Source: Escherichia phage vB_EcoM-S1P5QW
Sequence record: OL956808.1
Length of the DNA: 64,000 nt
Strand: one strand, 5' to 3'
Both the position numbers and the translations under genes were made by a program. The stretch's first letter is position 1, and every line of letters begins with the position of its first letter. The notes under the pieces were generated by a model. It saw only the letters and a program-made list of their open reading frames with translations, had not been told where the DNA came from and did not search any database. Positions 1,581-61,966 of the stretch are shown in pieces.

Positions 1581-3092
1581 TTATAAATTAACTGTTTTCA
1601 TTACGTAATTAAATTTTTCATCTGCGTAGCGCTGAATACGATCAATGCCGTGTTTTAAAAGATAGTTCAAATGAACGTATTTCTTTTTCGTATTAGCAGA
1701 TTTTGGCTTAACACCGCAATCATCAATGAGGTCCCAGACCGTTGCGATTGTTTTAGAACCATGCTTACGTAATACGCGACCTATTGTTTGCAATACAATA
1801 ATTTTAGATTTAACACCGTGTGCTAAAACAACGTGATGCAGATTTTTAACTGAAATACCAGTAGAAAATACACCATAACTAGCTACTATAATTATTCCTT
1901 TACCGTTTTCAGCTAAAGTTTTCATTACATTGCGGGTTTCGGTATCAACTTCCCCTGATACGTAATAAACTTTATCGTATTCATTTTTAATTAAATCGAA
2001 AATAGCTTTACCGTGTGATACGTGTTTAAACATGACAAAAGCGTTTTCATCTTTTTGCGCAAGCTTAATAGCTAATTTAGCGATCCATTTATTTCTTTTA
2101 CTGAGTCCAGTAATAATTTTTATTTCTTCTTGGTAAGTTTTTCCCTTTAATTTAGTAGTGAACTCATCGGGATAGCGAAGAAAAATACTATTAATTTTTA
2201 ACTCAGTTACTTGTCCATCTTCCATTAATTTAGAAGTCGTTACTGGCTTAAATATTTCACCAAACATTCCAACATACTGCATGATATTAGCTTTGCCATC
2301 ACGCAATGAACCGGACAAACCAAATTTAAACATGCAGTTATTTAAACCTGATATGATAGATGAAATACTTTTTCCTGTAGCAAGATGACATTCATCATTC
2401 ATCATCATTCCAAACTGTGAGAACCATTCTTTTGGTTGTTTTACTACAGTTTGCCATGTACCAACAACGACTGGTGCATCATTTTTATATTTATCATCTT
2501 TTGATGCTCCACCGCCGATTTTCTTTATCATTGCATGACTGAATAAACGATAGTCAACAAAGTCATCAGCCATCTGAGTTGTTAAAGCAGTTGTTGGAAC
2601 AATGATAAGAATTTTACCTTCATAATTTTCCAAATAATACCGAGCAAGCAGAGCTTGAATTAACGATTTACCAGCGGATGTTGGAAGATTAAGAATTCTA
2701 CGACGATTAACTAATCCTTCGAACACTGCATCTTTTTGATACCAGTGTGGTTCAATTCTTTTATTTCCTGAATAGATTTCTAATTTAGAAAGCCATTCAT
2801 CAAAATCTTTTCTTGATAATTCTTCTTTTTCGTTAATCTGCGGGTCAATCCAGGCTTTATAGCCAAAGTTATCACAGAACTTTTTAATTTGCCCGACTAA
2901 GCCGAATGGAAGAAGGCGATTATAATCTAAAAGACGGATTCGTCCATCCCAGTGACCATATTTGTATTTCGGATTAAAACGATACCCTTCAGCTTCAAAG
3001 CTAAAGAAATCACGGAGTTCATGAAATGTACTTTCTTCACAATCAATTCTCACGTGACTAAAATCATAAAAATGTACTTTAATGTCAGTCAT
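1581..3092 (-). CDS. uvsW: UvsW DNA/RNA helicase (SF2)
   Basis: 503 aa; Walker A TSAGKS and DECH box; matches recalled T4 UvsW. Confidence 0.9.
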   Translation of the reverse strand: MTDIKVHFYDFSHVRIDCEESTFHELRDFFSFEAEGYRFNPKYKYGHWDGRIRLLDYNRLLPFGLVGQIKKFCDNFGYKAWIDPQINEKEELSRKDFDEWLSKLEIYSGNKRIEPHWYQKDAVFEGLVNRRRILNLPTSAGKSLIQALLARYYLENYEGKILIIVPTTALTTQMADDFVDYRLFSHAMIKKIGGGASKDDKYKNDAPVVVGTWQTVVKQPKEWFSQFGMMMNDECHLATGKSISSIISGLNNCMFKFGLSGSLRDGKANIMQYVGMFGEIFKPVTTSKLMEDGQVTELKINSIFLRYPDEFTTKLKGKTYQEEIKIITGLSKRNKWIAKLAIKLAQKDENAFVMFKHVSHGKAIFDLIKNEYDKVYYVSGEVDTETRNVMKTLAENGKGIIIVASYGVFSTGISVKNLHHVVLAHGVKSKIIVLQTIGRVLRKHGSKTIATVWDLIDDCGVKPKSANTKKKYVHLNYLLKHGIDRIQRYADEKFNYVMKTVNL

Positions 3093-3121
3093 GTCTAAAT
3101 ACCATGTAATAAATATATCTA

Positions 3122-3129
3122 TATTTATA
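3122..3129 (-). promoter_or_regulatory. late promoter for uvsW
   Basis: Plus-strand tatttata = minus-strand TATAAATA, about 30 nt upstream of uvsW ATG. Confidence 0.6.
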
Positions 3130-3142
3130 CTGAGGAAATATT

Positions 3143-3823
3143 ATGATAGATAAAGATTATATTGCAGAGCTGAAGGCTCTTGATGATAACAAAGAAGCTA
3201 AAGCTAAATTAGCTGAATATGCTGAACAGTTTGGTATAAAGGTCAAAAAGAATAAATCTTTTGATAATATCGTTGTTGATATTGAAGAAGCCCTCCAGAA
3301 GCTCGCTAGTGAACCTATGCCAGAGACTGATGGGTTATCTATTAAAGACTTAATTGATGCTGCTGATGCCGCAGACGGATTAAAATATGACGATGAAGAA
3401 GTCAATCTAGAGGCAGCACTTCTGATTGATTCTCCGGTTAAATCTGACATTAAAATTGAAGTAGTAGAAATGGATAAAATTCCTGAAAATACCGATGTTT
3501 TGATTGAAGATACTCCTTTTGTTGAAGAAAAATTCGAGCAAGCTGTAGCTGAGATTATTGAATCTGAAAAGCCGTCTGTATTTACTCTTCCGGAAAACTT
3601 TAGTCCGAATCTTCAGCTGATTGGAAAAAATCCAGGATTCTGCACTGTTCCTTGGTGGATTTACCAGTGGATTGCTGAAACTCCGGATTGGAAATCTCAC
3701 CCAACAAGTTTTGAACATGCGTCGGCACACCAAACTTTATTTAGCTTAATTTATTACATTAATCGCGACGGATCAGTTCTAATTCGTGAAACACGCAATT
3801 CTTCTTTCGTAACATTAAAATAA
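3143..3823 (+). CDS. inh: Inh, inhibitor of prohead protease gp21
   Basis: 226 aa, same length and position as T4 inh, next to hoc; gagga RBS. Confidence 0.75.
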   Translation: MIDKDYIAELKALDDNKEAKAKLAEYAEQFGIKVKKNKSFDNIVVDIEEALQKLASEPMPETDGLSIKDLIDAADAADGLKYDDEEVNLEAALLIDSPVKSDIKIEVVEMDKIPENTDVLIEDTPFVEEKFEQAVAEIIESEKPSVFTLPENFSPNLQLIGKNPGFCTVPWWIYQWIAETPDWKSHPTSFEHASAHQTLFSLIYYINRDGSVLIRETRNSSFVTLK

Positions 3824-3832
3824 GGATAACTT

Positions 3833-4963
3833 ATGGCTTTTACAGTTGATATAACTCCTAAAACACCTACTGGAGTTATAGATCAGACTCAGCAGTTTAC
3901 TGCTACACCCAGTGGTCAAACTGGAGATGGACCTATTACATATGCTTGGACTGTAGACGACGCTCCACAGGAAGAAACGTCAGCAACTTTTAGTTATGTA
4001 CTAAAAGGACCTGCCGGTCAAAAGACTATTAAAGTAGTTGCAACAAATCCAGTTCCTGATTCTGAAGCTGAAACAGCTGAAATTAGTACAACTATCACAG
4101 TTCAAAATAAGACACAGACAACTACTTTAGCTGTAACTCCTAATAGTCCTCCGGAAGGAGTAATCGGAACAGCTGTTGAATTTACCGCTACTTTAGCTTC
4201 ACAGCCACCAAGTGCATCTGCTACATATAAATGGTACGTAGATGATTCTCAAATTGGTGGAGAAACTAATTCTACATTTAGCTATACTCCAACTACAAGT
4301 GGAGTAAAAAGAATTAAATGCGTAGCCCAAGTGACGGCAACGGATTATGACGCAAAAGAAGTTACTTCGAATGAAGTATCATTAACGGTTAATAAGAAGA
4401 CAATGAATCCACAGGTTACATTGACTCCTCCTTCTATTAACGTTCAACAAGATGCTTTGGCTACATTTACTGCTAATGTCACTGATGCTCCAGAAGAAGC
4501 ACAAATCGAATACTCATGGAAGAAAGATTCTTCTCCAGTAGAAGGATCAACTAATGTATATACCGTTGATACCTCATCTATTGGAAGTCAAACTATTGAA
4601 GTTACTGCAACTGTTACTGCTGCTGATTATGATAGCAAAACTATTACAGCAGAAGGTCAAGTTCAGGTAACTGATAAAGTTGCTCCGGAACCAGAAGGTG
4701 AATTGCCTTATGTTCATCCTCTTCCACATCGTACTTCAGCTTACATCTGGTGTGGTTGGTGGGTTATGGATGAAATCCAAAAAATGACCGAAGAAGGTAA
4801 AGATTGGAAAACTGATGATCCGGATAGTAAGTACTACTTGCATCGTTACACTCTTCAGAAAATGATGAAAGACTATCCAGAAGTTGATGTTCAAGAATCA
4901 CGTAATGGATACATCATTCATAAAACTGCTTTAGAAACTGGTATCATCTATACCTATCCATAA
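3833..4963 (+). CDS. hoc: Hoc, highly immunogenic outer capsid protein (Ig-like domains)
   Basis: 376 aa; N-terminus MAFTVDITPKTPTGVID... matches recalled T4 Hoc; repeated Ig-like segments; terminator hairpin after stop. Confidence 0.9.
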   Translation: MAFTVDITPKTPTGVIDQTQQFTATPSGQTGDGPITYAWTVDDAPQEETSATFSYVLKGPAGQKTIKVVATNPVPDSEAETAEISTTITVQNKTQTTTLAVTPNSPPEGVIGTAVEFTATLASQPPSASATYKWYVDDSQIGGETNSTFSYTPTTSGVKRIKCVAQVTATDYDAKEVTSNEVSLTVNKKTMNPQVTLTPPSINVQQDALATFTANVTDAPEEAQIEYSWKKDSSPVEGSTNVYTVDTSSIGSQTIEVTATVTAADYDSKTITAEGQVQVTDKVAPEPEGELPYVHPLPHRTSAYIWCGWWVMDEIQKMTEEGKDWKTDDPDSKYYLHRYTLQKMMKDYPEVDVQESRNGYIIHKTALETGIIYTYP

Positions 4964-11685: not shown

Positions 11686-13310
<1,625 letters not shown>

Positions 13311-39889: not shown

Positions 39890-40586
<697 letters not shown>

Positions 40587-40598
40587 TTTCACAAAGTT

Positions 40599-40629
40599 GT
40601 TTACACAGGGTTTTAGTAGTGATACTATT
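40599..40629 (+). promoter_or_regulatory. early promoter upstream of ipI
   Basis: -35 GTTTAC, about 17-nt spacer, -10 tgaTACTAT; short inverted repeat agggt/accct around -10. Confidence 0.55.
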
Positions 40630-40662
40630 ACCCTATCAAAACAAAACCAAATGGAAATCAAA

Positions 40663-40896
40663 ATGAAAACTTTCAAAGAGTTTATCGCTGAATCTTCTGA
40701 TGTAAAAGTTGAGTTTATTTACACCGGCAAGAAAGATAAAATGGGTGAAATGCCTCATGGAGTTCTTCGTGATGCATTAGATAATTTCGGTCAACTCGCC
40801 GCAGAAGATTACGGTGATAAAATTGTTGTTACTGGTCCTGCTGCAGTTATTGAAAAATGGGCAGCAGAAAATAAATCAATTTTTCGTAAAAAATAA
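40663..40896 (+). CDS. ipI: internal protein I-like, N-terminal capsid targeting sequence
   Basis: Track ORF starts at TTG inside the promoter; ATG at 40663 gives MKTFKEFIAE-SSDV..., matching the T4 IP capsid targeting sequence and gp21 cleavage context; adjacent to 57B as T4 ipI; start could be the ATG at 40651. Confidence 0.7.
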   Translation: MKTFKEFIAESSDVKVEFIYTGKKDKMGEMPHGVLRDALDNFGQLAAEDYGDKIVVTGPAAVIEKWAAENKSIFRKK

Positions 40897-42198: not shown

Positions 42199-42807
42199 AT
42201 GCATTTTTATCTTTATAAAATAACAAATAAAATTAATAATAAAATTTATATTGGTGTGCATTCTACCGAAAATTTAGATGATGGATATATGGGTTCTGGT
42301 AAATTATTAAAAAGAGCCCAAGATAAATATGGTATAGAAAATTTTTCTAAAGAAATATTAGAGTATTTTGATGATAAAGAATCTATGCTTGAAGCCGAGA
42401 AAAATATTGTCACAGAAGAGTTTTTAAATAGACCAGATGTGTATAATTTAAAACTTGGAGGTGAAGGTGGATGGGATCATATAAATAATTATCCTATGAC
42501 AGATCAGCAACGCGAATTAATTTCATTGGGTGTTAAAAAGGCACATTCTAACGGAAAATTAAAAGGATGGTCTTCAAATGGATTAATGAAAAATGGCTTT
42601 GCTGGTAAAACTCATTCTCAAGAAGCTAAACGTAAAATAGCAAAAGCAAACGAAGCAAAAGTTTCTGCGAATGAAAGAAAAAGAAGAATAGAAATTTCTA
42701 AATTATATGATTTTTCTAAGCGGGGTGAATTATCTAAATATGCTAAGCATATTGGCGTAAGTCATACTCAAGCAAAAAGAATTCTAAATCAAATTAACAA
42801 TATATAA
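42199..42807 (+). CDS. segB: GIY-YIG homing endonuclease, SegB-like
   Basis: GIY-YIG signature FYLYKITNKINNKIYIGVH...YMGSG; track ORF (42157) begins just after tRNA-Gly, ATG at 42199 has an RBS; inside the tRNA cluster as T4 segB. Confidence 0.75.
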   Translation: MHFYLYKITNKINNKIYIGVHSTENLDDGYMGSGKLLKRAQDKYGIENFSKEILEYFDDKESMLEAEKNIVTEEFLNRPDVYNLKLGGEGGWDHINNYPMTDQQRELISLGVKKAHSNGKLKGWSSNGLMKNGFAGKTHSQEAKRKIAKANEAKVSANERKRRIEISKLYDFSKRGELSKYAKHIGVSHTQAKRILNQINNI

Positions 42808-44536: not shown

Positions 44537-44568
44537 GTTTACATCCCTGTTCTTCCATGGTACTATAT
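44537..44568 (+). promoter_or_regulatory. early promoter
   Basis: GTTTAC, -10 tggTACTATat; shares tggtactata(c/t)aactatcaact with promoters at 59485 and 60924. Confidence 0.55.
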
Positions 44569-44609
44569 AACTATCAACTACTGATACAGAAAACAACTTG
44601 GAGAACGAA

Positions 44610-51530: not shown

Positions 51531-51539
51531 CTGTTTACT

Positions 51540-51569
51540 TTTCCTCTTGACTGTGGTATAATTTTTCTA
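51540..51569 (+). promoter_or_regulatory. early promoter upstream of regB
   Basis: GTTTAC, 18-nt spacer, -10 tggTATAAT; imperfect inverted repeat cctcttgactg/cagttaagagg. Confidence 0.6.
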
Positions 51570-51589
51570 TCAGTTAAGAGGAGAATAAC

Positions 51590-52051
51590 ATGACTATCAA
51601 TACAGAAGTTTTTATCCGTCGAAATAAGCTTCGTCGTCACTTTGAGTCGGAGTTTCGTCAAATTAACAATGAGATTCGTGAGGCATCAAAAGCAGCAGGG
51701 GTCTCATCGTTTCATCTAAAATATTCTCAGCATCTTCTTGATCGTGCAATTCAACGGGAGATTGATGAGACATATGTTTTTGAATTATTCCATAAAATAA
51801 AAGACCATGTTTTAGAAGTTAATGAATTCCTGAGTATGCCTCCGCGTCCTGACATTGACGAGGATTTTATTGATGGGGTTGAATATCGTCCTGGACGTTT
51901 AGAAATCACAGATGGAAATCTTTGGCTTGGATTTACGGTTTGTAAGCCTAATGAGAAGTTCAAAAACCCGTCACTTCAATGCAGGATGGCAATTATCAAC
52001 AATCGTCGTTTACCAGGAAAGGCTTCTAAAGCAGTAATTAAAACTCAATGA
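51590..52051 (+). CDS. regB: RegB site-specific endoribonuclease
   Basis: 153 aa; MTINTEVFIRRNKLRRHFESEFRQ... matches recalled T4 RegB; own early promoter and gaggag RBS. Confidence 0.85.
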   Translation: MTINTEVFIRRNKLRRHFESEFRQINNEIREASKAAGVSSFHLKYSQHLLDRAIQREIDETYVFELFHKIKDHVLEVNEFLSMPPRPDIDEDFIDGVEYRPGRLEITDGNLWLGFTVCKPNEKFKNPSLQCRMAIINNRRLPGKASKAVIKTQ

Positions 52052-55728: not shown

Positions 55729-55760
55729 GTTTACTTTCCGTTTGAGCTGTGATACTATAC
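55729..55760 (+). promoter_or_regulatory. early promoter
   Basis: GTTTAC, -10 gtgaTACTATacaactatc. Confidence 0.5.
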
Positions 55761-55786
55761 AACTATCGGATAAAGAGGAGAACATC

Positions 55787-56702: not shown

Positions 56703-56888
56703 ATGACAAGTGAGCAGGCTTTTAAATTAAGAGAATTAATTGAGACGTATAGTAAAGCTGTTCATACATCAACAATTATTGATGAATCAGCTTTCTCCGG
56801 ACATGCTAACAAGATTAAATACAAAACTCTTATGGAAGAAGCTAAAGTAAATCTTGATTCTTATATTGAAACTTTAATTGGTAAATAA
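56703..56888 (+). CDS. hypothetical small protein
   Basis: 61 aa; gaggag RBS; preceded by early promoter and a 34-codon mini-ORF. Confidence 0.45.
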   Translation: MTSEQAFKLRELIETYSKAVHTSTIIDESAFSGHANKIKYKTLMEEAKVNLDSYIETLIGK

Positions 56889-56889
56889 T

Positions 56890-57432
56890 ATGAAAGCTGT
56901 AATTGAAACAACTGATTTGTTCGGTGACCTAGTTATCGAAAAACGCGGTAATGTATACGTTCTGACGCAGGAAGACGATAGTATTACTATTCTTCCTATG
57001 GAACTGGCTGCGATTTTATCTTATGCTCCCTCAGGAGTTACCGGTGTAACTAATATTACAGGTGACCTCCAAGTTCGTTTTTATCGTGGCCTTTACGGCG
57101 GTAATATTGAAACTGAATTTATGTGTCTTTCTATCAACAATTGGGCAACATTCGTTGCCAAGGTGAAAGAATTCTTAGAATCTGAAACAGCCGAAACACC
57201 CGAAAAGGCTAAACTTCAATGGGCTAAAGATCGCGGTGCTAACATTATTAATCCAGTAGCTGCAAACTATACTACGACTTTGGATGTCAAGACTTCTTAT
57301 GAAGATGGCGATGTCGTACTTGTTCGCCAAAATGATGATTCTCGAGCACATATTGTCACATTTACCAAAGACGAAGCTATTGCGCTAAAGACTTATCTTG
57401 ATTCTGTCATTCCAACTATGATTTCAAAGTGA
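56890..57432 (+). CDS. hypothetical protein, tandem paralog A
   Basis: Track ORF starts at TTG 56878; ATG at 56890 gives 180 aa; C-terminus EAIALKTYLDSVIPTM resembles that of the next gene. Confidence 0.5.
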   Translation: MKAVIETTDLFGDLVIEKRGNVYVLTQEDDSITILPMELAAILSYAPSGVTGVTNITGDLQVRFYRGLYGGNIETEFMCLSINNWATFVAKVKEFLESETAETPEKAKLQWAKDRGANIINPVAANYTTTLDVKTSYEDGDVVLVRQNDDSRAHIVTFTKDEAIALKTYLDSVIPTMISK

Positions 57433-57438
57433 GGAAAT

Positions 57439-57960
57439 ATGTTTATTTCAAGTGGAAGTGGTTTAATTCGTGTTGAATTTAAAAATGACATCTTTCTTAT
57501 TCAAGGAGATGATATTATTAAAATGAGTTATGACGAAATCAAGAAAATTTGTCATGCTCTTGAAAGTCATGGAAAAGTGAACGCTGTTATTGATATTGGC
57601 GATTTATGGGTGACGCTTTATGAAGTATCCGAAGGATTTAACATTGAAGATGAAAATAACATTTTAGCTATTGATAAAAGAACTGATTTGCTTGATATAT
57701 TAAAAGCCTATGAGCAGTCAAATGGCGGAAGAAAAGCTGCATTGATTTATCAAAAACCGCATTCATGTGGAACTGCTTCAATCATTTCAAATATTGAAGG
57801 CGAAGTTGATACTTATATGTGTGTTTTAAAAGCTGGTGGTGACCGTCATCCGGATTTTATTTCTATTCGTCAAAGCAATGGAGAAATTTCATTATCAAAA
57901 TCAGAAGCTGAAGCTATGATTAAGTATTTAACAACCGTTACGCCTTCAATGAAAGGATAA
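57439..57960 (+). CDS. hypothetical protein, tandem paralog B
   Basis: 173 aa; gagga RBS; C-terminus EAEAMIKYLTTVTPSM. Confidence 0.5.
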   Translation: MFISSGSGLIRVEFKNDIFLIQGDDIIKMSYDEIKKICHALESHGKVNAVIDIGDLWVTLYEVSEGFNIEDENNILAIDKRTDLLDILKAYEQSNGGRKAALIYQKPHSCGTASIISNIEGEVDTYMCVLKAGGDRHPDFISIRQSNGEISLSKSEAEAMIKYLTTVTPSMKG

Positions 57961-57962
57961 TT

Positions 57963-58424
57963 ATGATTATTAATGAAAACTCTTGGCATTATAAATTATT
58001 CAAATTGTTTAACGACGAATGGCAACGACCTAAGACACTATGCGCATATTTTTGGTCTATTGCCATTCCTACATTTTTCGTTTCTATTTTTGGATGTGCT
58101 ATACTCGTAGGGCTAACAATTATTTGTGCAGAAAGCCTACAACGTTGGCTTATTTTCGGTAGTTTATGGACTCTTCTTCCATCGGCATTTATACTTGCAC
58201 TTTTGGTTGTTTTACTTATTATCGGTTCATTTGTTATTCCTGCACATTTGCGTGAAAAATATAAAGATTATAAATGGAAAAAGGATTATGCTTTACGCGT
58301 AGAAAATATTGATAGGGCGTATAAAGGTTTACCTCCTATTCAACCCAAGAAATCGATTATCGTTGAATTTTTAAAAGCTCGTAAAGCTAAAGTATGTCCT
58401 GTTATTGAATATAAGGCTGAATGA
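57963..58424 (+). CDS. polytopic membrane protein
   Basis: 153 aa with 2-3 hydrophobic helices; translationally coupled to the downstream nucleotidyltransferase. Confidence 0.5.
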   Translation: MIINENSWHYKLFKLFNDEWQRPKTLCAYFWSIAIPTFFVSIFGCAILVGLTIICAESLQRWLIFGSLWTLLPSAFILALLVVLLIIGSFVIPAHLREKYKDYKWKKDYALRVENIDRAYKGLPPIQPKKSIIVEFLKARKAKVCPVIEYKAE

Positions 58425-59434
58425 TGAAAACAGTAATGAAAAGCTATTTTGGTAGTCATCTTTATGGAACTTCTACCCCAGAATCTGATGTAGATTTTAA
58501 AGAAATCTTTGTTCCTCCTGCTCGCGATATTCTTATCGGAAATGTCAAAGAGCACATGAGTAAAAACACTAACAACACATCATCTAAAAACACTAAAGAT
58601 GATATTGACCATGAACTATACAGTCTTAAATATTTCTTTAAATTAGCAGCAGATGGTGAAACTGTAGCATTGGATATGCTTCACACTCCACCTGAATTAG
58701 TGGTTAAATCTGATTTGCCTGATGTGTGGAAGTTTATTCAAGACAACCGTTCTCGTTTTTATACGACTAACATGAAATCATATTTAGGATATGTTCGCAA
58801 GCAAGCTTCTAAATACGGTGTCAAGGGTTCTCGTTTGGCTGCATTACGTGATGTATTGAAAGTAGTTAATCAAATCCCTGAGCAATGGGTTGATTACCAA
58901 GAAGACGGTTCCATTAAGCATCGTCGAACTAAAGTTGAAGATATTAAGCATCGTCTTCCAGAGAACGAATTCTGTGAATGGGTATTCCATAATCATGAGA
59001 AAACAGGTCCACAAACGTTCTACACTGTGTTGGGTCGTAAATATCAAACAACGCTTTCTCTCATTGAGCTTAAGCAGTCTTTGAATAAACTTGATGCTGA
59101 ATACGGCGAACGTGCTCGTAAGGCTGAAGCGAATGAGGGCATTGACTGGAAAGCTCTGAGTCATGCTTGCCGTGGTGGACTCCAACTATTGGAAATTTAC
59201 AAAACTGGTGACTTAGTCTATCCACTTCAAGATGCTCCATTTATTCTTGACGTGAAGTTGGGTAAGCATCCATTTAAAACGGTTCAAGAGTTTTTAGAAG
59301 ATGTGGTCGATCAAGTAGAAGCAGCATCTACTGAAGCTTCTAAGAACGGTATGCAGCAAAAAGTAGACATGAGTTTCTGGGATGACTTCCTTGAGAAGGT
59401 GTATCTCGAAAACCATCGAAGTTATTATAAATGA
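58421..59434 (+). CDS. Pol-beta superfamily nucleotidyltransferase-like protein
   Basis: 337 aa; N-terminal signature FGSHLYGTSTPESDVDF (G[GS]x9-13DxD) plus downstream acidic ALDMLH; ATGA overlap with upstream gene; terminator after stop. Confidence 0.6.
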   Translation: MMKTVMKSYFGSHLYGTSTPESDVDFKEIFVPPARDILIGNVKEHMSKNTNNTSSKNTKDDIDHELYSLKYFFKLAADGETVALDMLHTPPELVVKSDLPDVWKFIQDNRSRFYTTNMKSYLGYVRKQASKYGVKGSRLAALRDVLKVVNQIPEQWVDYQEDGSIKHRRTKVEDIKHRLPENEFCEWVFHNHEKTGPQTFYTVLGRKYQTTLSLIELKQSLNKLDAEYGERARKAEANEGIDWKALSHACRGGLQLLEIYKTGDLVYPLQDAPFILDVKLGKHPFKTVQEFLEDVVDQVEAASTEASKNGMQQKVDMSFWDDFLEKVYLENHRSYYK

Positions 59435-59461
59435 TAGGGAGCCTTCGGGCTCCCTTTTTTA
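59433..59461 (+). terminator. intrinsic terminator after the nucleotidyltransferase gene
   Basis: Hairpin gggagcc-ttcg-ggctccc followed by TTTTTT. Confidence 0.7.
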
Positions 59462-59484
59462 TTTCAAAAATTTTTCACAAAGTT

Positions 59485-59517
59485 GTTTACAAGCATAAAG
59501 CTTTATGGTACTATACA
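59485..59517 (+). promoter_or_regulatory. early promoter with stem-loop
   Basis: GTTTAC; inverted repeat cataaag/ctttatg in spacer; -10 tggTACTATacaactatcaact. Confidence 0.55.
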
Positions 59518-59548
59518 ACTATCAACTGATACGGATTTGGAGAATAAA

Positions 59549-60517
59549 ATGAAAACTGTAACTATCAATAAGGGTATCTACTTCGGTAAAGAAATCTCTG
59601 GAACTTTTGAGCTCTTAGGCGAATGGTTCCCAGATAATGCTCCGGTGGATGCACAAGGAGATGGTAAAGTTTTTGTTGAAATTGACGGTAAGCGTCGCGG
59701 TGTTTGGGTTTACAAATCAGACATTTCATATGATGGTGTAAAAGTTGAAGAAGTTAAAGAATCATATGAAGATATGAAAACCCGCATTAATAAAAGATTT
59801 AATGTTATGGGAATGATGACGAATGGTATTATTAACGGAAACATTCGTTCATTAATTATCTCTGGTGCGGCGGGTATTGGTAAAACGTATTCTTTAGATA
59901 AAGCTTTAAATAAAGCAAATGATATTGGATACATTGAATATAAAAGCATTAACGGTAAAATCTCCGGTATCGGTCTTTATGAACAACTTTGGAATAATCG
60001 TGAAGAGAATTCTGTCCTTTTGATTGATGATGTGGATGTTTTCTCTGATATGGACATTCTTAATCTTCTAAAAGCTGCTCTGGACACTGGAGAGACCCGT
60101 AAAGTCTGCTGGAGCACTGCATCTTCTTACTTAGAAGAAAAAGGCATTGAGCGTGAGTTTGAATTTAAAGGAACGATTGTTTTTATCACAAACGTTGACA
60201 TTGACCGCGAATTAGACCGTGGTACTAAACTTGCTCCACATTTACAAGCATTAGTGTCCCGCTCAGTTTATTTGGATTTGGGTGTTCACACTAATGAAGA
60301 AATTATGGTCAGGGTTGAAGATGTTATTCTTTCAACTGACATGATGCAAAAGCGCGGTCTTTCTGATGAAGAAACTTATAAAGCATTATCATGGATGAAA
60401 GTCAATGTTAATCGTTTACGCAATGTTTCACTGCGTACTGCTCTTTATCTTGCTGACTTTATTATGACCGACAAAAACGGTTGGGAAGAAATTGCTGAGG
60501 TTACTCTTCTGAAATAA
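59549..60517 (+). CDS. P-loop ATPase (AAA-like)
   Basis: Track ORF starts at TTG inside promoter; ATG at 59549 with ggaga RBS gives 322 aa; Walker A GAAGIGKT, Walker B VLLIDDVD. Confidence 0.6.
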   Translation: MKTVTINKGIYFGKEISGTFELLGEWFPDNAPVDAQGDGKVFVEIDGKRRGVWVYKSDISYDGVKVEEVKESYEDMKTRINKRFNVMGMMTNGIINGNIRSLIISGAAGIGKTYSLDKALNKANDIGYIEYKSINGKISGIGLYEQLWNNREENSVLLIDDVDVFSDMDILNLLKAALDTGETRKVCWSTASSYLEEKGIEREFEFKGTIVFITNVDIDRELDRGTKLAPHLQALVSRSVYLDLGVHTNEEIMVRVEDVILSTDMMQKRGLSDEETYKALSWMKVNVNRLRNVSLRTALYLADFIMTDKNGWEEIAEVTLLK

Positions 60518-60618
60518 TTCATAAGAGGACTTCTATGACAAAAAGGCAGTTCAGAAATAGATTATATGGACTGCCATTAAAAAGATGACTAGAATTAAAC
60601 TGGTGAATGGAGGTAGTG

Positions 60619-60921
60619 ATGTTATACTCAAAGGCTCGTGAAATTTATGAAACTAAAATTAAAGACGCGGTTCATCAGTTCGCAACGACAATGCGTTGGA
60701 CAAATGATTGGGAGTATTCAAAAAATCATAAGAAGCCCTTGGTGACAAGAAAGGCTCATATGTTAGTGTTAATAGACCGTGAGCAGATTAAAGCCCGAGA
60801 AGCCCTCCAGAATCATAAAAAGGCTGCTTTTGAATGGTTTATGGATAACACTGCTCCTGAGACTAAGAAAGCAGTGAGCGCTTGGTTCAGTGGAAAAAAT
60901 TGTGAAAGAAGTTTCTTTTAG
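60619..60921 (+). CDS. hypothetical protein
   Basis: ATG at 60619 with ggaggtag RBS (100 aa); upstream ATG at 60607 is an alternative. Confidence 0.45.
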   Translation: MLYSKAREIYETKIKDAVHQFATTMRWTNDWEYSKNHKKPLVTRKAHMLVLIDREQIKAREALQNHKKAAFEWFMDNTAPETKKAVSAWFSGKNCERSFF

Positions 60922-60923
60922 TT

Positions 60924-60955
60924 GTTTACAAGACCGTTCCTCTGTGGTACTATAC
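60924..60955 (+). promoter_or_regulatory. early promoter with stem-loop
   Basis: GTTTAC; inverted repeat gttcctc/gaggaac brackets -10 tggTACTATacaactatcaact. Confidence 0.55.
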
Positions 60956-60981
60956 AACTATCAACTACGGAGGAACACAAA

Positions 60982-61509
60982 ATGAACGCTAAAGATATTT
61001 TCAACCTGGTAAATTACAACGATGGTAAATTTAAATCTGAAGCACAAAGCAAGTTCTTTAATGACATCTCAATCGGAGGTGAAATCACGGTTGATGGAGG
61101 ACAAATTTACAAATCCCGTTGGAATTGGATCGTTATTATCGATGAGATTGGTATTGTAGAAATTTACAAGAATACGAATAAAAATCGTACATTACACTGG
61201 TCTCGTGATACTAATGAACAGTACAAAAAGGATAAAGCATCTAAATTATCTCGTGTAACTCAAGAAGATATTGAGTTCATCAAGAAAGATATTTTGATGT
61301 ATGATAACTTAATTGCTGAAGAGCAAGCTGTTATTGATAAATTTGACGAGATTAAAGCTTCTCGTGAAATTCCTGATTTTATGAAAGAATCAGTAAATGA
61401 ACGATACACTCTCATTTCAGAGCGTATTGAAACTTACAAAAAGCAAAGAGCTGAACGCCAGAATACTCTTCGGAAGTTTGAAGAACGGTTAAAGACGGTA
61501 CTCGCATAA
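60982..61509 (+). CDS. hypothetical protein
   Basis: Track ORF starts at TTG inside promoter; ATG at 60982 with ggagga RBS gives 175 aa. Confidence 0.5.
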   Translation: MNAKDIFNLVNYNDGKFKSEAQSKFFNDISIGGEITVDGGQIYKSRWNWIVIIDEIGIVEIYKNTNKNRTLHWSRDTNEQYKKDKASKLSRVTQEDIEFIKKDILMYDNLIAEEQAVIDKFDEIKASREIPDFMKESVNERYTLISERIETYKKQRAERQNTLRKFEERLKTVLA

Positions 61510-61564
61510 CCGCTTTATACCAAGGATGGTATAATGGTTCTAAGCCCTTTTAATTGAGATTATT

Positions 61565-61966
61565 ATGAAACAGTTGATAATTAAAAGATTGAATTTATTG
61601 ATATGTTGTTTATGTATAGTAATTGCATATGGTTATTACGCAATTAATGATTATATGCATTATAAAGATTATGATGTTACTGTAGTTAATACCTTTACAG
61701 GAACTCAAGGAAAGGGGTCTAGTTTATCGTTTATTGCCGTATATGAACTAAATGACGGTTATAGATTTAGCGAATATATTTCACCGGAGATGTATTCTTC
61801 AATAGAAAAAGGTGATAATATTACTGTAAGTTTACGTCCTTTCGACGTAAAACAGACATTGTTTGATAATATTGTTTGGTTCTTTGGAATGGTATTAGTT
61901 CAATCTGTGTGTGGTGCTTATATAGTCTTTTCCATCATATTCTGCGTATTTAGTAAAATTGAGTGA
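61565..61966 (+). CDS. membrane protein (N- and C-terminal TM helices)
   Basis: 133 aa with hydrophobic helices at both ends. Confidence 0.5.
   Translation: MKQLIIKRLNLLICCLCIVIAYGYYAINDYMHYKDYDVTVVNTFTGTQGKGSSLSFIAVYELNDGYRFSEYISPEMYSSIEKGDNITVSLRPFDVKQTLFDNIVWFFGMVLVQSVCGAYIVFSIIFCVFSKIE

Follow-up and report, generated by a model that had tools for sequence, protein, structure and literature searches.

Two early promoter repeats in a T4-like phage, first described as near-identical, bracket a small pair of genes, which raises the question whether this pair is a cassette that is exchanged between genomes, or whether the repeats are promoters in the first place and the genes between them residents. 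The window analysed here, the whole stretch of 64,000 nucleotides from Escherichia phage vB_EcoM-S1P5QW (record OL956808.1), comes from a Tequatrovirus, a T4-like phage, and Tequatroviruses match it at 98% identity. The gene order of the locus is that of T4, nrdC.11 – nrdC.10 – nrdC.9 – nrdC.8, and all features given below lie on the + strand. The first gene, nrdC.11 (58421..59434; 337 aa), aligns to T4 nrdC.11 and matches PF10127, RlaP. The first-pass annotation had described the bracketed pair correctly: nrdC.10 (59549..60517) encodes a 322-aa AAA+ ATPase with the motifs GAAGIGKT and VLLIDDVD, and nrdC.9 (60619..60921) a 100-aa DUF7203 protein (Pfam PF23833, E 1.7e-15; PHROG 1931). Downstream, nrdC.8 (60982..61509; 175 aa; PHROG 2274), named after the T4 annotation, heads the early transcription unit that follows. 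The nrdC/mobD region differs between T4, the window and RB69 and is a hyperplastic region, as is typical of promoter-early stem-loops (PeSLs), which are associated with modular exchange in T4-type phages (Arbiol 2010, PMC2839356; Comeau 2014, PMC4122927).

The proposal that the repeats are early promoters holds up well. Promoters of this kind in T4 (Pe) reportedly form an 'über' class with UP, -35, TGn and -10 elements (Liebig & Rüger 1989; Miller 2003; reviewed in Hinton 2010, PMC2988021), and all four elements are found in the window. The left promoter, that of nrdC.10 (59485..59514), has its -35 element TTTACA at 59486-59491 and its -10 element TACTAT at 59509-59514, and the right promoter, that of nrdC.8 (60924..60953), has the same hexamers at 60925-60930 and 60948-60953; a 17-nt spacer and TGG are present in both. 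The left UP region (-40 to -60) at 59456-59484, TTTTTATTTCAAAAATTTTTCACAAAGTT, is A/T-rich, and its UP-like block TTTCAAAAATTTTTCACAAAGTT (59462..59484) upstream of the -35 element is common to sites at 40577 and 44515. The right promoter also follows A/T-rich sequence before 60924, but this is the coding end of nrdC.9 and is less like that of the other family members. In T4, identical promoter sequences are found in front of nrdC.10 and nrdC.8. Judging from consensus and T4 identity, both repeats are probably active as σ70-type T4 immediate-early promoters, which would fire at once after infection and need no phage protein, and from its distance to the -10 element the nrdC.10 transcript would start near A59521.

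The repeats are indeed alike, though not to the full extent claimed. The sequence GTTTACAAG is located at 59485-59493 and again at 60924-60932, and the block TGGTACTATACAACTATCAACT, which spans the -10 element and the beginning of the transcribed sequence, is matched exactly at 59506..59527 and 60945..60966; it measures 22 nt rather than 24, and runs past the promoter ends that had been given. Identical stretches of 11 and 22 nt flank an unrelated 12-nt spacer, with about 80% identity over some 45-49 nt, and the two direct repeats lie 1439 bp apart. A third copy had been reported at 44537, and is found there in front of the orthologue of T4 e.8, whose early promoter it is (44537..44579), with one mismatch in the block (44558-44579; 0.00 matches expected from shuffles). 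In a repeat search of the window these three sites make up one 78-nt family with 68-71% identity, to which a promoter scan adds a fourth, partial member at 55729..55773, with the sequence TACTATACAACTATC, which is the early promoter in front of the mobD.5 orthologue. Scanning the window for GTTTAC-N-TAnnAT gives 12 matches against 1.19 expected; ten are well formed, and all ten lie on the early strand, from 40.6 to 63.9 kb. One complete genome of 169.6 kb has six copies of a 21-mer, preceding e.8, nrdC.10, nrdC.8, a 78-aa ORF, a 211-aa MotA-like ORF and a 37-aa ORF, and related complete genomes have at least six. The repeats belong to a sub-family of early promoters with at least six modules per Tequatrovirus genome and a common -10/start block of 21-24 nt, which would drive e.8, mobD.5, nrdC.10, nrdC.8, motA and other early genes.

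Both sites combine an early promoter with a stable stem-loop, placed within the promoter or beside it, but the stem-loops, which had been taken as part of the repeats, are not homologous. At the left, a terminator scan finds an intrinsic terminator at the end of the nrdC.11 unit (59436..59461), a hairpin at 59436-59455 with 8 bp, of which 6 are G-C pairs, and a tetraloop, followed by a T-run; this hairpin is also present in T4, T6, ACG-C40 and 232Ecol030PP, and the sequence of the left promoter itself has no significant structure (z +1.0). Two Rfam matches in 58-62 kb, one of them resembling an L20 leader and overlapping this terminator, are far below their gathering scores and were judged to be due to chance. 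At the right, a 13-bp hairpin spans the promoter (60936..60976; dG -19.4 kcal/mol, z -4.6 vs shuffles), with its 5' arm in the promoter spacer and its 3' arm over the Shine-Dalgarno sequence GGAGGA of nrdC.8. Given the position of its arms, it could form only in read-through RNA and may thereby gate translation of nrdC.8. In JS98-type orthologues the arms of the nrdC.8 hairpin differ yet still pair with the Shine-Dalgarno sequence, and RB69-type orthologues have a different hairpin before nrdC.8.

Where genes do come and go is the left promoter. I surveyed the locus span in 37 Tequatrovirus records, with one representative read per class, as a sample rather than a census, and six size classes were found: no insert (18), +482 nt (10), +698 nt (3), and +262, +623 and +1102 nt (2 each). 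Relatives show at least five alternative contents of the nrdC.11|nrdC.10 gap: no gene at all, a modB-like cassette, an orf49+DUF4031 cassette, both of these, or orf66. In ACG-C40 the UP/-35 block (31 nt, 97% identity) is duplicated on either side of the modB-like cassette, and a crossover in these duplicates gives the sequence of T4 and the window; the orf49+DUF4031 cassette is flanked by duplicates of the -10/start block (26 nt, 81% identity). These comparative data support gene exchange at the left promoter, which coincides with a breakpoint as described for PeSLs, and at the right promoter no insertion or deletion breakpoint was seen in the relatives compared. The 5'UTR of T4 and the window, CTGATACGGATT, is unlike what a simple deletion between the 232Ecol030PP promoters would leave, which points to mosaic histories, and the direction of change may have been gain or loss. 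DUF4031 is possibly ancestral in Klebsiella and Enterobacter phages, because it occupies the same site there. A tblastn search with the alternative cassettes found none elsewhere in the window, its sole match being a seg-like paralogue at 42.2 kb. The deletion endpoint inside nrdC.11 in T4_583L results from CRISPR-based genome reduction and not from natural recombination at the promoter.

The ATPase beside this variable site is itself well conserved. Its Walker A motif GAAGIGKT (aa 106-113) and Walker B motif VLLIDDVD (aa 156-163) include residues G106-T113 and D160/D161, which are invariant in 24 NrdC.10 homologues. A beta-rich N-terminal domain (aa 1-61) precedes the ATPase core (approximately aa 100-245) and a helical lid (aa 249-320), and an αβα nucleotide-binding core of this sort, with the helical lid behind it, is the architecture of AAA+ proteins. 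Invariant N215, R184, R238, R291 and R296 are candidates for sensor 1, arginine finger and sensor 2. All Pfam AAA models score below cut-off for NrdC.10 (the best, AAA_14, 23.5 bits vs 27), searches of NCBIfam and PADLOC gave no match, and a PDB sequence search gave one unusable match only, to a designed protein (E 0.11). NrdC.9 obtained in NCBIfam and PADLOC only a meaningless 13-bit match to a methyltransferase. NrdC.10 comes nearest to MoxR-type proteins (NorQ, CbbQ), MCM and σ54 activators, at just 10-18% identity, and no AAA+ clade is assigned because the scores of several clades differ from one another by no more than about 2 Z units. Unlike known AAA+ ATPases, it has an N-terminal β-domain that is peculiar to this phage family. 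Checking the ATPase subfamily with Pfam and structural matches left AAA+ standing among the types that had been suggested; ABC ATPases and SF1/SF2 helicases have no Pfam match and are absent from the top 50-60 structural matches listed. NrdC.10 is a generic AAA+ ATPase. It is present in 1311 phage records, in 482 of them with at least 99% identity, and the neighbours of distant homologues include no recurrent gene family outside the T-even and Acinetobacter-type group.

That nrdC.10 and nrdC.9 are themselves a cassette, excised, inserted or replaced by recombination between the flanking promoter repeats, is highly improbable. Their position between direct repeats speaks for it, as do the tandem PeSLs of RB49 and phi1, which loop out an intervening ORF as mini-circles (Arbiol 2010, PMC2839356), and the finding of nrdC.10 in just three of six T4-like genomes (Nolan 2006). 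Recombination between the two promoter copies is predicted to leave the hybrid junction GTTTACAAGCATAAAGCTTTATGGTACTATACAACTATCAACTACGGAGGAACAC. I searched 50,697 phage records with a deletion junction that runs from the 3' end of nrdC.11 straight into the promoter and the start of nrdC.8, and in none of 665 related records does the 3' end of nrdC.11 come within about 1 kb of the 5' end of nrdC.8; as no record joined both halves, a reading of the pair as present or absent is rejected. Moreover, the gene order is unchanged in RB69, and NrdC.10 is 55-100% identical across the phages of five host genera (Escherichia, Klebsiella, Acinetobacter, Aeromonas, Vibrio). Since nrdC.9, like nrdC.8, is lost independently of nrdC.10, the bracketed ORFs do not move together. 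Between the repeats, the sole variation observed is an inserted ORF for a seg-like endonuclease, which separates nrdC.10 from nrdC.9; its start overlaps the nrdC.10 stop, and it has no promoter of its own. The pair is a conserved resident pair, not a mobile cassette. Modular exchange, as the first-pass annotation had it, is borne out for the gap at the left, with its duplicated promoter parts, but not for the ATPase and the 100-aa ORF, and the comparison across genomes that it called for shows the former variable and, in the 665 related records, no deletion of the latter. A functional module of NrdC.10 with its upstream neighbour, such as might serve RNA repair or counter-defence, is also unlikely. 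NrdC.11 matches Pfam PF10127 RlaP well above the gathering cut-off (E 1.9e-11, 44.6 bits vs 23), the T4 protein has been named RlaP, cluster 5 (PMC12776372), and it is an RlaP-family (Pol-beta superfamily) RNA nucleotidyltransferase; enzymes of this family extend damaged 3' ends of RNA by nucleotide addition, which would suit RNA repair. It is found 0.1-1.4 kb upstream in all nine loci with NrdC.10 at least 66% identical, including Acinetobacter-type phages, an adjacency that survives variable ORFs in between; both genes are early, and the region holds nrdC.5, a known counter-defence against Dsr1. However, a strong terminator and a separate promoter stand between the two genes, in a gap that is a hot spot where unrelated cassettes are found. 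In Aeromonas phage 44RR2.8t they are some 110 kb apart (contig range 154-163 kb vs NrdC.11 at 46.5 kb), and 34 more distant NrdC.10 loci have no NrdC.11 within 4 kb. Counts of nrdC.10 and nrdC.11 per host genus disagree (Klebsiella 149 vs 285, Vibrio 121 vs 55), and a genome-reduced T4 that lacks nrdC.11 and retains nrdC.10 has a near-normal burst size. The linkage is weak, and so is the partnership once suggested for the two proteins.

Alternatively, the identity of the repeats could reflect nothing but the requirements of strong T4 early promoters, with no role for recombination. In many T4-like genera the -35 element of early promoters is followed by the pattern TAnnAT-N5-CTATC(A/G), and reviews report that T4 early promoters, which have the UP/-35/TGn/-10 layout, contain further regions of consensus (Hinton 2010, PMC2988021). 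In one phage (L012) the nrdC.10 promoter is kept as an orthologue, including its spacer, though NrdC.10 is just 78% identical. I nevertheless consider consensus alone improbable, as cassettes in relatives are bracketed by duplicates of promoter parts in which a crossover gives the T4 arrangement, and as the identity reaches parts with no known role in the promoter: L080 has a complete second copy of the promoter, hairpin and Shine-Dalgarno module of nrdC.8, spacer included, before an unrelated 37-aa ORF, and the nrdC.10 5'UTR is reused before other ORFs. In L058, a Tequatrovirus, the nrdC.8 promoter has just its loop block swapped to that of another promoter variant, a clustered patch of five differences in an otherwise near-identical promoter. 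A further step would be that T4-type early promoters evolve as mobile, self-homogenising modules, with concerted lineage-specific replacement of blocks, exchange of patches, copying of whole units and a hairpin as translation gate. This seems possible, though I would put it forward only tentatively; the -10/start block, identical in at least six promoters of one genome, is TACTATACAACTATCA in the T4 type vs TATTATAGACCTATCA in the RB69 type, which is another genus, and such lineage-specific blocks could be due to selection rather than gene conversion. If true, only RNA from its own promoter would be translated, and each cassette would be insulated translationally as well as transcriptionally.

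The reading I prefer, with a probability of roughly 0.85, is that the repeats are early promoters kept alike by function and by module copying, that their PeSL-like homology is a by-product, and that the ATPase pair is resident. Each repeat would work through an A/T-rich UP element, -35 GTTTAC, a 17-nt spacer, TGn, -10 TACTAT and a conserved start-site block, and would open an early transcription unit of its own. At the left, the intrinsic terminator would insulate this unit from nrdC.11, and at the right the hairpin is predicted to hide the ribosome-binding site of nrdC.8 in read-through RNA and not in RNA from its own promoter. Promoter function would keep the repeats identical, and copying and patch exchange, presumably through the very active homologous recombination of the phage, may add to this identity. 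As a by-product, the promoter modules would offer portable homology for the gain and loss of small early-gene cassettes, in line with the mechanism already published for PeSLs.

The literature already covers the promoters, the model of shuffling by PeSLs, the AAA motif in NrdC.10 and the assignment of NrdC.11 to the RlaPs. The modest addition is a worked example from T-even phages of one promoter site with combinatorial alternative early-gene cassettes, in which flanking promoter duplications mark the places of crossover and a conserved AAA+ gene remains untouched beside the site. It is also a caution that a gene flanked by direct repeats need not be the mobile part. Compared with known systems, the repeats resemble T4 Pe promoters in their -35 sequence GTTTAC(A/T), 17-nt spacer, TGn, -10 TAnnAT, A/T-rich upstream sequence and extra conserved positions; there is no difference in kind, but the 21-24 nt of -10/start identity in the sub-family exceeds the general consensus. 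The right hairpin resembles those of T4 e, soc, 49 and I-TevI, which sequester the ribosome-binding site in read-through transcripts (Uzan & Miller 2010, PMC3014915), in that the promoter is located within the 5' arm or downstream of it and the helix that hides the Shine-Dalgarno sequence forms only in RNA started upstream. Those documented cases concern late promoters and delayed translation, whereas that of nrdC.8 involves an early promoter and a predicted effect. Compared with PeSLs, the bracketed gene pair here is invariable and the two stem-loops are of different kinds. However, the promoters fit the published PeSL consensus of the T4/PST pair, TTTACW-N17-TAYWAT (PMC2839356, PMC4122927), and as in PeSLs an early promoter with an adjacent stem-loop stands before ORFs of unknown function and is tied to insertion, deletion and replacement between close relatives.

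The window is from a Tequatrovirus, and its region 58400-61600 is matched by 758 phage records, with Shigella phage Phaginator on top at 98.1%. The early-transcription strand of T4 corresponds to the + strand of the window, and comparison with the T4 reference identifies nrdC.11 (58421-59434), nrdC.10 (59549-60517), nrdC.9 (60619-60921) and nrdC.8 (60982-61509), all on this strand. The T4 homing endonuclease gene mobD, upstream of nrdC.11 in T4, is absent from 56878-58424, where 184-, 173- and 153-aa open reading frames stand in its place. Of the nine T-even and Acinetobacter-type loci examined, four have the gene for the 153-aa product, a membrane protein, immediately upstream of nrdC.11, and five have it within one to four open reading frames on the same side.

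The sequence GTTTACAAG is observed at 59485 and at 60924, and T4 carries both promoter sequences as well, upstream of nrdC.10 and nrdC.8, respectively. Both repeats consist of -35 TTTACA, a 17-nt spacer, TGG and -10 TACTAT, in line with Hinton 2010 (PMC2988021), where the early promoters of T4 are characterised as UP/-35/TGn/-10 with additional consensus regions; the repeats are recognisable as known T4 early promoters, as the first-pass annotation had proposed, and the open reading frames and Walker motifs between them are as it described. The block TGGTACTATACAACTATCAACT is identical at 59506-59527 and 60945-60966, its length being 22 nt and not the 24 nt first given, and the further copy reported near 44537 is present with one mismatch in this block (44558-44579); by chance none would be expected. 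The repeats are real, far beyond chance, and a repeat search of the window assigns all three sites to a single 78-nt family of 68-71% identity. In each promoter a 12-nt spacer separates the 11-nt identical block from the 22-nt one, and these spacers are unrelated; over 45-49 nt the identity of the promoters is therefore about 80%, which falls short of near-identical.

With 1.19 matches expected, GTTTAC-N-TAnnAT is found at 12 places, 10 of which are well-formed + strand sites between 40.6 and 63.9 kb, all ten preceding genes that have a Shine-Dalgarno sequence. These ten divide into sub-families: TACTAT followed by ACAACTATC is common to 44537 (T4 e.8), 55729 (mobD.5), 59485 (nrdC.10) and 60924 (nrdC.8), and the variant TACTATTACCCTATCAA is found at 40599 and 40897. 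In an exact search of viral contigs for the 21-mer of the -10/start block, six copies were found in one complete 169.6-kb genome, preceding e.8, nrdC.10, nrdC.8 and open reading frames of 78, 211 and 37 aa, and the two repeats plus a third are thus members of a larger promoter family, with six or more copies per genome. The start of the 211-aa product I take to be that of MotA. The sequence that follows the 40599 early promoter (40599-40700) is without a match in 42-78 kb of T4, which has ipI at the corresponding position; the difference agrees with the polymorphism known for the internal-protein locus (Repoila 1994, cited in Arbiol 2010).

Comparison of the locus across T-even genomes, a check proposed at the outset, shows that it varies, with inserts mostly in the gap between nrdC.11 and nrdC.10. 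Among 37 evenly spaced full-length Tequatrovirus matches, of which one representative was read per class, the locus span falls into six size classes: no insert (18 records), +482 nt with orf49 and DUF4031 (10; 232Ecol030PP), +698 nt with a seg-like endonuclease (3; T6), and, with two records each, +1102 nt with a modB-like gene, orf49 and DUF4031 (ACG-C40), +623 nt with a modB-like 161-aa gene (UFV-AREG1) and +262 nt with a 66-aa open reading frame (Kelasse). In these representatives four of the five insert types sit in the nrdC.11-nrdC.10 gap, at the left promoter (59485), and RB69 has yet another open reading frame there. The T6 insert lies between nrdC.10 and nrdC.9, with a start that overlaps the stop of nrdC.10, and lacks its own promoter; it therefore bears no relation to the repeats. 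This seg-like open reading frame (239 aa, 2616-3335 of the T6 locus) is also present in RB9 and FL12; the window has a paralogue of it at 42241-42471, 37% identical across 81 aa.

The junctions of the inserts are informative. In ACG-C40, the modB-like cassette has a terminator, UP element and GTTTAC on either side (31 nt at 97% and 54 nt at 85% identity), and a crossover in these flanking blocks gives exactly the T4/window sequence. The orf49-DUF4031 cassette is flanked by TG(G/A)TACTAT....CTATCAAAACAAA (26 nt, 81% identity); in the phages carrying it, the nrdC.10 promoter of T4 drives orf49, and nrdC.10 is served by a different variant. The 161-aa gene (1663-2148 of the ACG-C40 locus; also in UFV-AREG1 and T2) is annotated as a putative second ModB-like RNA polymerase ADP-ribosylase, and comes with a promoter (TATAAT -10) and a terminator of its own.

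The idea of cassette exchange equals the published model of promoter-early stem-loops (PeSLs). Their definition comes from RB49/phi1, together with evidence for mini-circles (Arbiol 2010, PMC2839356); Comeau 2014 (PMC4122927) then added the T4/PST pair, with TTTACW-N17-TAYWAT as consensus. For deletion of nrdC.10 and nrdC.9, I used a synthetic junction fusing the 3' end of nrdC.11 to the nrdC.8 promoter and gene start; its halves are joined in 0 of 665 matching records, and therefore the pair is never cleanly missing in sequenced relatives. The sequence comparisons thus support PeSL-type shuffling at the left promoter, the site of the relatives' inserts, without involvement of the pair between the repeats; nrdC.10 and nrdC.9 as a mobile cassette, the other part of the original proposal, are not supported.

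NrdC.10 matches several Pfam AAA and STAND models, all with scores below threshold, and belongs to PHROG 1250, of unknown function. In a 24-sequence alignment G106-T113 (Walker A) and D160 and D161 (Walker B) are invariant, as are N215, R184, R238, R291 and R296. On the basis of these residues and the sub-threshold AAA scores it is an AAA+ ATPase without an assignable clade, which bears out the AAA-like label; the further options once considered, an ABC protein and an SF1/SF2 helicase, do not apply. Its AAA motif was already noted in 2006 (Nolan 2006). The family is widespread and conserved, with NrdC.10 in 1311 phage records, at least 99% identical in 482, and still about 55% identical in Aeromonas phages. 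The T4 reference protein is annotated with 325 aa and a different C-terminal tail, owing to an indel near the end (…GCTACGGGTTACTC…; 12344-12400 of the T4 locus, the nrdC.10 3' end, versus window 60490-60517), where the window and the family consensus read …AEVTxLK; this may be a strain frameshift or a reference sequencing error.

NrdC.11 matches Pfam RlaP above threshold and was named T4 RlaP in a 2025 preprint (PMC12776372), according to which bacterial RlaPs put one or two nucleotides on damaged RNA 3' ends. That NrdC.10 works together with this nucleotidyltransferase, as had been suggested, seems improbable. The gene for NrdC.11 precedes that for NrdC.10 by 0.1-1.4 kb in each of the nine loci with an NrdC.10 at least 66% identical, but is within 4 kb of it in none of 34 more distant loci, and about 110 kb separate the two genes in 44RR2.8t. 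Moreover, the gap between them holds a terminator and a separate promoter and is an insertion hot spot, counts per host genus differ (NrdC.10 versus NrdC.11: Klebsiella 149 versus 285, Vibrio 121 versus 55), and a genome-reduced T4 without nrdC.11 and with nrdC.10 shows almost normal growth.

Promoter modules also recur elsewhere. In one Tequatrovirus contig (IMGVR_UViG_2974742932_000001, 1373-1393) the whole nrdC.8 module, in the order -35, spacer/hairpin arm, -10, start block and Shine-Dalgarno arm, is duplicated before an unrelated, hydrophobic 37-aa open reading frame, this second copy of promoter, hairpin and Shine-Dalgarno sequence reading GTTTACAAGACTGTTCCTCTGTGGTACTATACAACTATCAACTACGGAGGAACAGAAATG; the nrdC.10 5'UTR (TGATACGGATTTGGAGAATAAAATG) likewise recurs upstream of other open reading frames. 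In another Tequatrovirus contig (IMGVR_UViG_2974787500_000001, ~300-400) NrdC.8 is 100% identical and only the loop block is swapped, to TATTATTACCCTATCAAC, the -10/start block being TGGTATTATTACCCTATCAAC versus TGGTACTATACAACTATCAAC with the flanking stem unchanged, as if a short patch had been copied over from a different variant of the promoter. RB69 and its relatives share a different block, TATTATAGACCTATC, at the orthologous promoters of the locus (in RB69 at 2555-2600, 2833-2880 and 4168-4215), and RB69-type and JS98-type promoters have a lineage-specific -10/start block, TATTATAGACCTATC or TACTATAGACCTATC; paralogous promoters within a genome are closer to each other than to their own orthologues. 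The pattern is concerted, which could reflect gene conversion or lineage-specific selection; gene conversion may homogenise early-promoter modules and spread them.

The stem-loops ascribed to the repeats are real, but they are not copies of each other. The left promoter has an upstream terminator (59436-59455; 8 bp, 6 G-C pairs, then a T-run), the only classical one, and no significant structure in its own sequence (dG -3.7, z +1.0). The right promoter lies inside a 13-bp hairpin, 60936-60976 (dG -19.4, z -4.6), whose 5' arm is the promoter spacer and whose 3' arm covers the nrdC.8 Shine-Dalgarno sequence; the 5' arm would be missing from RNA started at the gene's own promoter, which leaves read-through RNA as the only kind that could form the hairpin. 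The promoter upstream of the regB orthologue is likewise embedded in a strong hairpin (51533-51595, z -4.9), with the -35/-10 spacer as 5' arm and the 3' arm over the Shine-Dalgarno sequence, again for read-through RNA only. Among orthologues of the nrdC.8 promoter, those of JS98 type keep the Shine-Dalgarno pairing through arms that are very different (TCTCCAGTAG / CTACTGGAGG), and those of RB69 type have a different hairpin, spanning the -10 element only. The embedded hairpin may gate translation to RNA from the gene's own promoter. The same hairpin design is documented for the T4 genes e, soc, 49 and I-TevI (PMC3014915); however, the promoters there are late, whereas the embedded promoter of nrdC.8 is early.
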